DNA of 64,000 nt from Podospora anserina (lineage: Eukaryota): positions 310,001-374,000 of the forward strand of contig CM030337.1 of NCBI GenBank assembly GCA_017654855.1, given 5' to 3'. Both the position numbers and the translations under genes were made by a program. The stretch's first letter is position 1. Every line of letters starts with the position of its first letter. Below, piece by piece: positions 45,154-51,058 of the stretch. The notes under the pieces were generated by a model that was given only the letters and a program-made list of their open reading frames with translations, was not told where the DNA came from and did not search any database.

Positions 45154-48100
45154 ATGAACGGCGCCGAAACTAGGAGAGGCGGGTCTGGTGGCGGAGGAGT
45201 AGGAGGAAGAGGGGAAGATGGCTACGGACGCATGCCTGCACCTGCTGTACAACCACCATCGTTGTCAGACGTCGCACCGACGGCAAAGGCACTAGTCGAC
45301 GGCTACAGGAATGAGATTCTCGGGGGAGTAGAGGGTGACAAGGCGAGAATTAGCCCAGTATGGCCTCCTCCCCTTTTCAGGCGTGAACATTGTTGGCTAA
45401 TTATGGATTACATACAGCTAAACACAAACCAACCGCAAACATCGCCTCTCGTCGATCTTAAAGACTCGATTCAGGTGCATCTCTTGACCGAAACGGCGTT
45501 ATCGGACAGTAAAAGCTATGAAATCCTCTCGCAAGAGGAGGTTGACGGCCTCAAGAAACAGATTCAGTCACTGGGAATGCGCGTCGAACAGGCGAGGGCG
45601 AACCTGGCTATACAGTCCAAATACCGCGATGCAGCAGTTTCAATGGCCAAACTCTACTCGTCTGGCGGCAAAAGAAAGAGTCTGCTGGGTAGCCGTATGA
45701 GTGACTCGGCCAAAGAAGCAGAGATGGAAAAGGCCACCAGTGAACGCCGTTGTGAGGAACTGGCTTCAGAGCTGTTTCACCTAGAAAAAGGCTTGATGGA
45801 GCCTCAGCGGCGTCTGCTCCAACACACTGCCGGCGTCCTGCAGCTAACCCATAGGGCGTCCTCGAAGAAGTCCGGACAGCCGCAGCTGCTTGGCCAGCCG
45901 ATGAACGGCATGCCAGGAAGCCCCGAGAGTCTCTATACCTACACCAACACGAGGAACAGCATGGAGATCCCCAACGAGCAGCTCGATTTCAACAACAAAG
46001 ATAAGGACTTGTACCTGTCGCTCGAAACGGATGGGCCGCCAGCCACCCGTGCGCGTAAGAACACACTGGAGATTCCTATCAAGTCCCCTATCCGCGAGCA
46101 AAATGCCCAGCTGCGGGAACTACGTGAGGAGGTGGAGCGCTACAAAGAGGAGATTGCGCGCATGAAAGAGGAGAATGCGCAGCTCAAACGATCCGAGGAG
46201 CAGCTGAGCCAAGATTATGCCCGCGCCGAGGCGGAAAAGACAAGACTGGAGGAGATGGAGGAGCAGCTCAGGGAGGAACATGCCAGGGTCATGGAAGAGA
46301 ACTCTCGCATGAAGGACGAAACAATGCGCTCCAAGGACGAGAGCGGGTCGAGGCTGCAGGAGGCTGATTCACGAATGAAAGCGATTGAGCAGCAGATGGG
46401 GCCCCAAATAGACGCGCTGCAGGCGCAAACTTCGGAGCAACAGAGGGCCATCTCGATGACGGAATCTAGGCTCGAGGACTTGAACGACAAGCTCCGTGAT
46501 CTGATCGTCGCATTCAACCCGGCCAAGAATGAAGAATTTGGTCGTCCGGACGCTGATAACCTCGAGGCGCAGCTCGACTATCTAGAAAATGGTCTCAACA
46601 CGGCGATCACTGAGCAGCAGCAACAGGCTGCTAACTTGACCAAAACCGACAAGGTGGCAGCTGAAGCGGCCGCAGCATCCTCCGAGGCCGCCGCGTTGGC
46701 AACAACTCTTTCCAAGGTCGAATCCTCGTTTGGGCAAACTGAGGTCCGTCTGCAGAATTTGAACCGCCAAGTCTTGTTCATTCTTCAGCAGGCCAATGTT
46801 GACCAGGCACCACCGCCCGAGGGAGATCTCAATGTCCAGCTCAACTACTTGGAGGACTCGGTCGACAAGGTCAGTTCTGAGATTGGGAGAATTGTTGAGG
46901 CCTCGATGGCCGGCTCGGCTAGCAAGCGTGATCTCGAGCAAGTTGATGCTGTGCTCATGGGTCTGTGGGAGATCATCCAGACTGGTTATGCCGAGATTGC
47001 TCAGCAAAAGGCAGCACCCAGACAAGCCCGTGCCCTGGGCCAAGGCACCCCAGACGATGACGAGGATTTGTCAGGCAACGAGTTTGAAGGCGACACGAAC
47101 GAACCGTACTCCCTGCCGGCATTCTCTGCCAAGGTTCAATGGCTCTATGCGCAAGCGACTGGTCTCCGAGAGCAAAAGTACATCCTTCAACGGCAGATCA
47201 AGCAACAGCGTGAGCTCAACAACCGCAGCGAATCTGAAAAAGACCAGGAGCTTCAAGCCAAGAAGGAGGAGTTGGAGAAGACCCATATGCTCCTCGACGA
47301 CAGCGAGCGTGCCGCCCAAGAAGCCCAAGAAAAGCTCCAAAAGGTCCTTGTCGACCTCGACTCCATGCAGAAAGCCAGCGCCGCCAACGAAACGGCCTCT
47401 GCCTCCTCGGTCAAGGTTGTTCAGGAACAGCTCAAGGAGCGCAACGCCCAGGTGTCTGCTCTCGAGTCAGAGTACAGTGCCATTCAGGCACGTCTCGCCA
47501 CCGTGGAGTCCAATATGTCGTCTGTTCAGAACCAGCTTATCCAAGCCAACGAGTCCCGTGTTGCTGCCGAGGGTGAGGTGGCTGCTCTCAAGTCCGAACT
47601 GGCTGCCGCAAGCGAAGCCTCTGCCAACGCGGGCAAAGAGGTTGAGAAGCTGCAGGCCGACCTGAAGCAGAAGGACGAGGAGCTCGAGGCGATGAACATG
47701 ATGGTGATTGAACTTAAGACGGAGATGACCATCGCCAAGGCCGAGCTCGATGGTGCCTACGGTTCGCGTAAGCAGCGGGCGGCGGAGGCGGCCAAGTTTT
47801 CCAACACTGCCGAGACAGCTGAGCTCAACGCCCAGGTGGTCAAGCTGCGGTCTGAGTTGGAAGCTGCCTTGCGTGATCTGGAGGACATCACCAAAGAGAG
47901 CATCAATTCTGAAAAGGAGAAGCTGGATTTGGAGAGCCAGTTGGACGATGCTGTGGCTGTGAAGGCGAGGTTGGAGCAAGAGGTCAAGGTGTTGAGGGAT
48001 AGGCTGGACAAGGTAAAGGAGGAGTTGGATAAGGAGCGGTTGAGGCCACCCAACTCGCCTGTGCCAGGTGCCGGAGCGGGTGCCGGAGCTGGAAGAGCCG

Positions 48101-48343
48101 GGGCTACCATGTTGAGTGAGCAGTTCCGGGCTACTATGAAGGAGGAGAGGAGGAAGTTCCAGGAAGAGTTACGGGTATGCTTTCATCCCCTTTTCCCTTA
48201 CTTCAGTTGAGACATCCAATACTAACCAACAAAAACAGGAGGAGCAATCTAGACGTCGCAAGCTCGAGGACGAGCTCAGGGCACTAAAACGAGGCACCAC
48301 CGCCAGCGTCGGGAGTCGCGGGGGGCTTCTCAGTCCCAGGTGA
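45154..48343 (+). CDS. Large coiled-coil protein with a Uds1 (up-regulated during septation 1)-type domain
   Basis: HLLTETALSDSKSYEILSQEEVDGLKK...KYRDAAVSMAKL...RRLLQHTAGVLQ, long heptads and AKAELDGAYGSR. Introns 45358-45417 and 48175-48238. Confidence 0.85.
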
Positions 48344-49242
48344 CAACCAGCAGTCGAGTTGGTTGGCAAAGGCGTGATCAAGTCCGCGGCCGAGTCCGTG
48401 GGCGAGTTTGTGACGGATGTGGTGGACGACGTGAGCGAGTTTGTGACCGACTTGACTGATAAATAGATGGAATGGGCAACCTTCTACCTTGGGGGAAAAC
48501 ACAATAAAAAAACAAGGGAAATCAATTTTGGCTAGGCTACTACTGGATGACAGGGTGGGCAGCCTACATGATATAGATGGATGGGATCGATGTTGGAAAT
48601 TACACAATCAGGGGTTCTTGTATAAAACTAGTTGTATTAATCTTCTTGTTGGTGGCGGGATTTGAGGAGCATTATCGATTCTGGGTATGAAGAAAGGGCG
48701 AGAAAGAGACAGACACTGGGCAGCAGGCTTTACAATTGGCTATGCTTGCTTTTTTATTCTTGGATTATGCTTGATGTTTGAAGCAGCTGTATGTAGAAAT
48801 CAAAGGGGGAAGGGCTAACATTATACCATTTCGTCAAGGCGAGCAAAGTTATCAGTTACAATTTAGGGAATAAAGATGGACGGAAGGGTACTACTTTCAG
48901 TGATGTCTTTACTCTTTGCTTCAGGTGTGATGAATCTTTTGGTGTCTGGTCTCCGCAGTCATTGATCATTCTTCATCACTTCGCAGTCCCCTTGATCTTC
49001 TATATTAGGATCTCGTATCAGAATCTATATGTAATTTTGATCCCATAATTCTACCCACTCGCCATGCATGCTTTCAAATCTGCTATGCTCAACGTTCGTC
49101 CTGAACATCTGAACCAGACACGGGGAATAAAGCCAGACAATCACCCCCTGATCTGTGACTGCCCTCGTCATATACACAAGAAGAAAAACCAAAAAGCTCC
49201 CCTTGAATTCCACTCATTCAAACCACATACAAAATCCACATC

Positions 49243-51058
49243 TTAGTAACCCAGGGCCTTGAACTCCTCCTCCACTTGTTGCCTGACGACATCTCGTACA
49301 GCCTTCCAATCGTTCGCCACATCACTGACTCTCTTTTCCTTCTTGTCCAGCCCAACGAACTCGGGTGGGAGGACATTCTCCTGGAAGTTAAACTCTGGCT
49401 CCTCCTTGAGCGCCAGCTCAACCGCGCCGGCAAACTTGGCCGGATGGGCTGTTGAGAGAGAGATGATGTGCTTTGCGGCACCTTCTTCCACAAGAGCGCG
49501 CTTTTGTGTCCTTCTCGCAGCCTCCACGCCGACTGCCGTGTGGGGGTCAAGAACATAGCCAACTTCCTTGTAGAGGGCCTTGATGGTGTCGAGTGTCTCC
49601 TGGTCGCTGACCCTTTCACTCTCAAAGTTCTTGCGCGCAGCTTCAAGAACGTCCTTGTATACCGGCCCGAAACCACCCTTGTTCTTGAGGTCAGACAGCC
49701 AGGAAGAAACTTCCTGACCAGCCTGCTTCTTGTTCCACTCATCGTCCATCCCAGCGCTGGAGGCAAACTGATACGCCAAGAACCATAGCAGGCGCTCAAA
49801 GTTGGAAGACACCAGGATATCCATGGCGGGAGAAAGAGTTTCCTTCACGCCATCCTCGTGGGCCTTGACACCGTCCTGCTCAAGACCGCCTTCGGCCTTG
49901 GAGCCGTAGGTGGGCTTCTTCTCGTAACGACCAGTCTTGAAAAAGCGGTCAAGAATATCGTTCTCGTTGGTGGCAATAACGAGCTTGTCGACGGGGAGAC
50001 CCATACGAAGGGCGAAGTAACCAGCGAGAATGTCGCCAAAGTTTCCGGAAGGGACAGCGAAGCGGACCTTGTCGCCGAGCTTGAAGGTAGAGGGTTGCTG
50101 GCGGAGGAGGGAGAAATAGGCGTGGAAGTAGTAGACAGTTTGGGCGAGAATACGAGCCCAGTTGATGCTGTTGACGGCGCCGAGCTTGTGGGTCGAGTTG
50201 ATCTCAGGGTCGGCAAATAGAGCCTTGACGATGTCCTGTTTTCAGTCTGTAAGTATTTGAACGATAGACGGGAACACATCACAGCTCACCTGGCAATTGT
50301 CAAAGTTGCCAGTGACAGCCAGATTATGAACATTGGCGTCCAGCACCGTGGTCATCTGCTGCTCCTGGACGGGGCTCACGCGCCCCTTGGGGTGGAGCAT
50401 GAAAACCGAGACGTCCTTCTTCCCCCTGAGACCGTAAATGGCAGCCGAGCCAGTATCACCGCTCGTGGCACCCACCACGGTCAAGTGGTATCTGTCACGG
50501 CCGGTCTTTCCCTCGTTTCTGCGCACCAAGAAATACTCGAAGAGGTTTCCGAGGAACTGGAGGGCCACATCCTTGAAAGCAAAGGTTGGGCCGTGGAAAA
50601 GCTCGAGAAGATGAACATCACCTTGGAGGTTCACCAGTGGTGTGACTTCGTCGGCACGGAAGGTTGCGTAACTCCTGTTGATAATATCCTTGAGGTCCTC
50701 CGAGGGGATTTCGGAGGGGGAGACGAAAAGGGAGATGATGTTGAAGGCGAGGTCGGTAAAGGAAAGATCCTTCCAGGATTCCCAGTTCTCGGCGGAGGGA
50801 ATGGCTTCGGGAATGTAAAGACCACCGTCGGAGGCAAGGCCCTTGAGTACGACCTCTTCAAAGGAGAACTGAGGGGGACAACATGGTCAGCGTCTTACAG
50901 GGGAGGGCTAACGTGAATTCGTGATTCTGCCACAACCAAAAAAACAAGAGCAATGGGAGACATACGCCGCTGTCTTCACCACGGGTGCTCAGGTAGCGCT
51001 GCGACGCAGTGTGAGTCTGGTCGGCAGAAGCGCCATTGGCAACGACACCGTTGGACAT
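49243..51058 (-). CDS. THR4: Threonine synthase
   Basis: YLSTRG, LELFHGPTFAFKDVALQ (PLP lysine), GATSGDTGSAA, NSINWARIL, PSGNFGD and STAHPAKF. Introns 50869-50965 and 50236-50289. Confidence 0.98.

Follow-up and report, generated by a model that had tools for sequence, protein, structure and literature searches.

A predicted hairpin behind a UGA in leaky context suggests structure-stimulated readthrough of UDS1 in Podospora anserina

Does the UGA codon that closes the UDS1 gene of Podospora anserina simply end translation, or could it let a fraction of the ribosomes pass into a further open frame? The question was raised by a 64,000-nucleotide (nt) stretch of the P. anserina genome (assembly GCA_017654855.1, contig CM030337.1, positions 310,001 to 374,000 of the forward strand; hereafter the window, in whose numbering all coordinates are given). 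An initial annotation of this DNA had proposed programmed readthrough of the stop codon on the basis of the hexamer that follows it and of a 40-codon tail. We analyzed the stop codon, the RNA structure and the reading frame behind it, the transcripts and the corresponding sites in relatives. On the predicted features described below, we consider programmed, structure-stimulated UGA readthrough to be the probable fate of this stop in Podospora, though by a moderate degree of confidence only. The greatest weight was given to a hairpin with the right spacing from the stop and to a test of the independence of hairpin and coding character, and little weight was given to the features that had been selected initially.

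The gene and its stop codon

The gene, which lies on the + strand, belongs to the UDS1 family, as judged by its domain score and by its orthology to fungal UDS1 proteins. Pfam reported PF15456 with an expectation value (E) of 1.5e-39 and 135.4 bits against a gathering cut-off of 28.8, in agreement with the Uds1-type assignment made earlier, together with DUF7801 (PF25078; E 1e-16, 61.9 bits). A protein search returned 326 matches, the best of which are named Up-regulated-during-septation proteins, and the spliced product is identical in 1041/1041 residues to PODANS_6_3940 of P. anserina S mat+. A literature search with this locus tag, the scope of which did not extend to supplementary files, found no paper. 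The term "septation-associated" in the initial annotation was drawn from the family name alone. The UDS1 of Aspergillus nidulans is an effector of RAB11-GTP, a dimeric coiled-coil protein of rod shape that enters the HUM complex together with HMSV and myosin V on secretory vesicles, and the Neurospora orthologues are components of the Spitzenkorper (PMC9213775).

The stop codon is found in the sequence AGG TGA CAA CCA GCA (48338-48352), with TGA at 48341-48343, and the frame behind it runs on for 40 open codons, QPAVELVGKGVIKSAAESVGEFVTDVVDDVSEFVTDLTDK, until it is closed by TAG at 48464-48466, exactly as had been described. UGA CAA CCA combines both elements of a leaky context, UGA followed by C and a hexamer that fits CARYYA, as noted earlier, and also the yeast consensus CARNBA. 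Both hexamers raise readthrough, CARYYA equally with UGA or UAG, and readthrough with CARYYA was about 15% in one mammalian reporter (PMC4132726). By simple base odds, a match to CARYYA is expected by chance in 1/512 of cases. Forty open codons in a row are nothing unusual, as 23.6% of 20,000 composition-matched randomizations that kept the hairpin were open.

A predicted hairpin at the spacing of recoding stimulators

Folding of the region 48338-48480 predicted an extended imperfect hairpin (Table 1), a feature absent from the initial annotation, the basal stem of which consists of 13 uninterrupted base pairs (bp) between 48351-48363 and 48446-48458. With the U of UGA counted as +1, the hairpin begins at +11, after the 7-nt spacer CAACCAG, and thus within the distance of about 5-12 nt 3' of the stop that characterizes stimulatory structures. 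The minimum free energy (MFE) of the + strand was -54.6 kcal/mol, compared with a mean of -40.6 kcal/mol for dinucleotide shuffles (z -4.31), and 0 of 200 shuffles were as stable, whereas the reverse complement of the same region reached -27.5 kcal/mol (z -0.14), a stability attained by 78 of 200 shuffles. The difference between the two z-scores indicates that the structure belongs to the sense RNA.

The energy of the hairpin was matched by 3 of 1000 codon shuffles, by none of 1000 shuffles within codon-position classes and by 8 of 1000 sequences in which the tail peptide had been recoded synonymously. Since so few codon shuffles and recodings fold as well, the hairpin does not simply follow from the pattern of codons. 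The pairs of the basal stem had probabilities of 0.84-1.0 in sequence contexts of 362 nt and 701 nt. The window holds 20 stems of at least 13 bp with a span of at most 125 nt on its + strand and 13 on its - strand, and simple arithmetic from these counts gives a chance of ~0.0025 that such a stem begins at +9 to +16 of a given stop. Rfam returned no match at E ≤1 within 48200-49000, selenocysteine insertion sequence (SECIS) elements included.

Coding-like and amphipathic character of the tail

The G+C content (GC) at the three codon positions is 0.65/0.33/0.73 in the tail and 0.63/0.40/0.66 in the coding sequence (CDS), as against 0.35/0.44/0.44 in the later untranslated region (UTR), which bears out the earlier remark that the codons of the tail resemble those of the CDS; G makes up 0.60 of the first codon positions of the tail. 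The initial annotation had also placed the turn to AT-rich sequence strictly after the second stop. Overall GC does drop, being 0.57 in the tail and only 0.41 across 48467-48899, but the fall already starts at ~48440, ~20 nt ahead of that stop. With a codon table built from the 21 long open reading frames (ORFs) of the window, the tail scored +0.25 per codon and ranked in the top 3.4% of 16,297 open 40-codon stretches outside long ORFs, a comparison set that still holds real short exons. Twelve post-stop stretches of at least 10 codons behind other long ORFs of the window scored between -0.04 and -1.16 per codon; two more were positive (0.29 and 0.07), and these are 233 and 403 codons long and resemble downstream exons. 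The test reads the coding signature from a single sequence.

In a single-sequence AlphaFold model of 75 residues with a mean predicted local distance difference test (pLDDT) score of 68, residues 11-39 of the tail are helical. A hydrophobic moment of 0.49 was calculated at 100 degrees and of 0.54 at 98.2 degrees, which was reached by 0 of 5000 shuffles, and hydrophobic residues occupy positions 1, 2, 5, 6 and 9 of three consecutive 11-mers, a hendecad pattern. The 11-mer amphipathic tail of the initial annotation is therefore present as a hydrophobic pattern over three repeats, but its supposed binding to membranes or lipid droplets is doubtful. The polar face carries nine D/E and three K, and the resulting net charge of -6 makes binding to acidic membranes unlikely. 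Lipid-binding 11-mer repeats of the perilipin, synuclein or apolipoprotein type form amphipathic helices with a neutral or basic interface; in the tail, the hendecad pattern extends over ~3 repeats and the polar face is acidic.

The hairpin and the protein-like character of the tail occupy the same nucleotides, and their independence was assessed with 20,000 randomizations of the tail that left all base pairs, their types and the composition of the loops unchanged. None of these reached the codon score of the tail and 38 reached its hydrophobic moment, indicating that neither the coding-like nor the amphipathic character is a by-product of the hairpin. The same 108 nt appear to be under two separate constraints, as should be expected of a readthrough stimulator situated inside a translated extension.

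The pentapeptide EFVTD recurs exactly 11 residues apart, at tail residues 21-25 and 32-36, as reported previously, and is encoded by gag ttt gtg acg gat in the first copy and by gag ttt gtg acc gac in the second. This synonymous difference had been offered as a sign of coding; it is real, but the argument fails because the 12 aligned codons of the repeat differ 5/2/5 times at positions 1/2/3. The underlying 21-nt repeat has two matches in the whole window, compared with 0.01 expected, and both lie in the tail and nowhere else. EFVTD in an acidic tract presumably resembles an FFAT (two phenylalanines in an acidic tract) motif, a likeness that we do not claim as an assignment.

Searches with the tail gave no match at E ≤1 among proteins of 133-2000 residues, and only three weak matches (E 1.6e-5 to 5e-4), all of them repeat proteins, among 1.84 billion representatives. 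The tail is thus no fragment taken over from a known gene, and it is nowhere annotated as a C-terminus. The three weakly matching proteins are long and contain recurring D-V/I-G-N/D-F/W-x-x-N/D units, and one of them is tape-measure-like. Homology of the tail to these proteins was considered and rejected, and the resemblance was judged to be that of a convergent hendecad-type amphipathic repeat.

Transcripts across the stop codon

Assembled RNA contigs from four runs, belonging to four studies, cover the 3' part of the gene; the RNA label of the runs was guessed, yet all of the contigs are spliced. Such contigs may hide rare isoforms and low-level editing, and they carry no information on translation. 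In 4/4 runs, position 48174 is joined to 48239 and the RNA then continues unspliced across the tail with no other joint. Two contigs end at 48899, and two extend past 49250, where they merge with the convergent gene. The 3' UTR that follows the UGA is accordingly long, at least about 556 nt.

Evidence from relatives and points against readthrough

UDS1 of five sibling species differs by 10-17 residues, and every one of these proteins ends in ...GLLSPR. Among the best 120 of the 326 orthologues, the motif of the last exon lies near the end in 63; in 46 of the 63 the last residues are exactly [ST]P[RK], and a further 12 have this motif within 1-4 residues of the end, while most of the remaining motif carriers are products of the ORF caller that stop inside the intron. 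FVTD was found in none of the motif-bearing orthologues among these 120. By protein, the closer relatives are Cercophora samala and Triangularia (92-94%) and P. australis (69%). More distant relatives were collected by a metagenome scan, which yielded 61 UDS1 loci; the last exon and the stop could be read in 44 of them, at 26-62% identity, and 30 distinct ones were folded. The stop is TGA in 23 of the 44 and TAA or TAG in the rest, and the in-frame extensions behind it measure 0-59 codons and bear no likeness to the Podospora tail. The tandem stops found in some of these relatives are TGA TGA or TAA TAG, the opposite of a leaky design.

Several of the results count against readthrough. The conserved TGA-CAR and extension to which the initial annotation looked in relatives were not recovered: TGA-CAR occurs in 0/44 of the metagenomic relatives and TGA-C in only two, and a second stop directly follows the first in 9/44, which shows tight termination to be normal at the C-terminus of UDS1. 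A counterpart of the tail was found in 0/61 loci, the best tblastn hit having an E of 2.1 at an unrelated place and blastn-short returning nothing, and in the 30 distinct relatives the post-stop sequences folded no better than shuffles (z -1.81 to +1.77). At 26-62% identity, therefore, the joint conservation of stop, context, frame and structure that is expected of programmed readthrough is not seen. Low z-scores are also not unique to the tail, because 143-nt segments inside the CDS reach z -2.75 and -2.26 (200 shuffles each), and a rough scan with 40 shuffles gave two segments below z -3. The 33-nt DNA repeat accounts for part of the amphipathic signal. Finally, CCC AGG, the sequence 5' of the stop, is not of the A-rich type that is reported to promote readthrough in yeast.

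The proposal of programmed readthrough thus stands as regards the hairpin, the coding-like tail and the unspliced mRNA, but conservation of the context and of the tail is missing from the 44 relatives. Because the post-stop sequence of Podospora has no counterpart in the relatives of 26-62% identity, it arose after the split from them. The comparison suggests that the stop of UDS1 is old and that the tail is not, and the readthrough device appears to be young and restricted to Podospora or its close relatives.

Alternative explanations

The most serious competitor, although in our estimation an unlikely one, holds that the hairpin is a 3'-UTR RNA element with some other role, in localization, stability or protein binding, and that the open frame is incidental. 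The hairpin is the statistically strongest single feature of the region, it lies in a long 3' UTR, and neither it nor the tail is kept in the more distant relatives; moreover, synonymous recodings mostly fold worse, and the 8/1000 that are as stable indicate that RNA structure shapes the sequence of the tail. Such an element would nevertheless leave unexplained the codon score and the hydrophobic moment, which hairpin-preserving randomization attained in 0/20,000 and 38/20,000 cases, and it would have to begin by chance (~0.0025) at the spacing of recoding stimulators behind a CARYYA-type leaky stop; it also matches no Rfam family. It seems improbable that the region is just an ordinary 3' UTR, open, GC-rich and foldable by accident and showing at most an unselected background leakiness. 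An open 40-codon run is common at such composition (about 24%), and the absence of conservation in the 44 relatives is what chance would give, but four coincidences would be required together: the context (1/512), the spacing of the hairpin (~0.003), the codon score (0.034) and the amphipathic pattern.

The stop might also be removed from the message itself, by sexual-stage adenosine-to-inosine (A-to-I) editing of UGA to UGG (Trp) instead of ribosomal readthrough, as lengthening of a protein by stop loss is established for DBF2 of Fusarium graminearum (PMC13123824). We regard this as very unlikely here, since fungal editing strongly prefers U at -1 and hairpin loops and so favours UAG and UAA (PMC11156358), whereas the A of the UDS1 stop is preceded by G and belongs to the unpaired spacer on the 5' side of the stem. 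No other letter was seen at the stop in the four sets of RNA contigs, in which rare variants are dropped. Hardly any credence can be given to the tail being reached by alternative splicing, the competing route named in the initial annotation, or to the UGA being read as selenocysteine. A GT overlaps the stop (cag/GTGACA) and could in principle serve as a 5' splice site, but the 64-nt intron is the sole joint in 4/4 RNA runs. As to selenocysteine, the Rfam search within 48200-49000 gave neither SECIS nor any other match, and the Ascomycetes are not known to possess selenocysteine machinery.

Proposed mechanism and its possible consequences

The analysis establishes the sequence features, the predicted hairpin with its statistics, the coding-like and amphipathic character of the tail and an unspliced mRNA that covers it; the occurrence of structure-stimulated readthrough, its level and any function of the tail are inferred. 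With the UGA at 48341-43 in the ribosome's A site, the weak context UGA-C/CAACCA would lower termination, and the 108-nt hairpin, situated 7 nt downstream at the mRNA entrance, would further help a near-cognate tRNA to decode it. Some ribosomes, a minority, would then translate 40 extra codons and stop at the UAG at 48464. The product would be UDS1 with 41 additional residues, the last ~30 of which would fold into an amphipathic helix that is acidic and has its hydrophobic residues in a hendecad pattern. The role of the tail can be guessed to be that of a module for protein-protein interaction or self-association, or of a tag affecting stability, at the C-terminus of a dimeric RAB11/myosin-V adaptor. 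For an acidic helix at the end of a parallel dimer, pairing with itself or with a partner, or an altered stability, would be likelier than binding to an acidic vesicle membrane.

A wider proposal can be put forward only tentatively. Within the Podospora lineage, a cellular gene may have evolved a complete two-part signal of viral style, consisting of a CARYYA-type hexamer and an extended stem-loop at the ribosome entrance, in which the same 108 nt both stimulate readthrough and encode a newly born helix, carried by a fraction of UDS1 at the hyphal tip. Readthrough in fungal cellular genes is mostly ascribed to short contexts, such as UGA-CUA in peroxisomal isoforms, and the stimulatory stem-loops described so far come mainly from viruses and from a few genes of flies. 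If the proposal is true, a fungal gene with both signals would show that viral architecture can arise in cellular genes, and the locus would illustrate in compact form how a protein tail is born de novo, with codons that serve at the same time as an RNA switch. The stability of the hairpin, as affected by temperature, helicases or developmental stage, would then set the ratio of two UDS1 isoforms, one of them an unrecognized form of a protein that in A. nidulans is a key adaptor of tip growth.

Comparison with known readthrough systems

Among viruses, stimulatory stem-loops begin at +12 in Venezuelan equine encephalitis virus (VEEV; 126 nt) and Colorado tick fever virus (CTFV; 78 nt), at +16 in Sindbis virus (SINV; 177 nt) and at +9 or +13 in chikungunya virus (CHIKV), and the pseudoknot of murine leukaemia virus (MuLV) begins at +12 (PMC13517186). 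Stems of the alphavirus/coltivirus type raise readthrough up to 10-fold (PMC3159437, Firth et al. 2011). Like the alphaviruses VEEV, SINV and CHIKV and like CTFV, UDS1 has C as the next base after its UGA and, 5-12 nt past the stop, a stem-loop that is extended and imperfect. The start and length of its hairpin, +11 and 108 nt, compare with +9 to +16 and 78-177 nt in these viruses, and in both cases the structure lies within the (in UDS1, putative) readthrough coding sequence. In contrast to the viral examples, UDS1 is a cellular fungal gene, has CAACCA, of the type found in tobacco mosaic virus (TMV), rather than CGG or CUA, and has an extension of only 40 codons and a structure known from prediction.

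Cellular genes with a 3' stem are represented by kelch and headcase of Drosophila. In kelch, a 14-bp stem stands behind the UGA after an 8-nt spacer (PMC3159437), close to the 13-bp basal stem after 7 nt in UDS1. The stem and spacer of kelch are conserved in 12 Drosophila species and its extension is long, whereas UDS1 lacks conservation in distant relatives. CAACCA fits both the TMV-type CARYYA and the yeast CARNBA contexts, which work without a downstream structure (PMC4132726), while one is predicted in UDS1. Closest in kingdom are the fungal peroxisomal isoforms, in which, as is proposed for UDS1, ribosomal readthrough of UGA in cellular genes gives a C-terminally extended isoform with a new property; their UGA CUA cases have short extensions ending in a type 1 peroxisomal targeting signal (PTS1), whereas the tail of UDS1 ends in LTDK, with no recognizable targeting tag, and is accompanied by a hairpin (PMC4207609). 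Stop-loss editing of FgDBF2 offers a Sordariomycete parallel, as it provides a morphogenesis protein with a lineage-restricted C-terminal extension by bypass of the stop, which is what is proposed for UDS1, and that extension may act via protein stability (PMC13123824); such editing has a preference for hairpin loops with U at -1 (UAG, UAA), unlike the UDS1 stop, a UGA with G at -1 in a single-stranded spacer. In a non-exhaustive literature search, no fungal cellular gene with both readthrough signals was found.

Features of the locus and its surroundings

The coordinates of the gene, the stop and the elements behind it are collected in Table 1.

Table 1. Features of the UDS1 locus, in positions of the window
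Feature	Positions	Strand	Basis
UDS1 CDS exon 1, from ATG 45154	45154..45357	+	ORF list; spliced translation identical to PODANS_6_3940
Probable 60-nt in-frame intron, GTATGG...CTAAT...ACAG	45358..45417	+	20-residue gap relative to the 1021-residue Logan ORF
UDS1 CDS exon 2: Uds1 domain, coiled coil, DUF7801	45418..48174	+	PF15456, PF25078; orthologues
64-nt intron, GTATGC...TACTAAC...CAG	48175..48238	+	GT..AG joint in 4/4 RNA runs, 4 studies
Last coding exon, EEQSRRRKLEDELRALKRGTTASVGSRGGLLSPR	48239..48340	+	conserved C-terminus among orthologues
Annotated stop UGA, next base C	48341..48343	+	sequence
CAACCA hexamer, inside 7-nt spacer CAACCAG	48344..48349	+	fits CARYYA and yeast CARNBA
Candidate 40-codon in-frame extension, coding-like; residues 11-39 predicted acidic amphipathic helix	48344..48463	+	
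Imperfect RNA hairpin, 108 nt, 41 bp (32 Watson-Crick, 9 G-U)	48351..48458	+	predicted fold, MFE -54.6 kcal/mol
21-nt direct repeat, two copies encoding V-G/S-E-F-V-T-D	48397-48417, 48430-48450	+	19/21 identical, spacing 33 nt
Second in-frame stop UAG, 5 nt beyond hairpin	48464..48466	+	sequence
Remaining 3' UTR, GC 0.41	48467..48899	+	end of two RNA contigs at 48899

The 60-nt intron near the start of the gene is kept as coding sequence in the older P. anserina model of 1041 residues and is removed in the models of the five sibling species, which are 1021 residues long. A Logan ORF has this same length of 1021 residues and shows no substitutions relative to UDS1. The 1041-residue annotation probably carries 20 intronic residues.

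The second stop, at 48464-48466, has U at -1 (AAAUAGAUG), and fungal A-to-I editing would fit it better than it fits the first stop; beyond it, 22 more in-frame codons precede the next TAG. An antisense ORF of 107 residues gave no match in a protein search. On the + strand, the +1 frame relative to the CDS is open for 68 codons (48253-48459), over the stop and the entire tail. Its translation is rich in Arg and Gly (…RVRGRVRGRVCDGCGGRRER…) and its codon score is poor (-34), and the openness of this frame most likely just reflects the periodic, G-rich sequence.

The convergent neighbour on the - strand (49243-50886) is threonine synthase, as indicated by THR4_C (E 1.3e-27), Thr_synth_N (E 1.4e-24) and PALP. 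The RNA contigs of UDS1 and of threonine synthase end or begin at 48881-48946 or merge, and the 3' UTRs of the two genes consequently abut or overlap.

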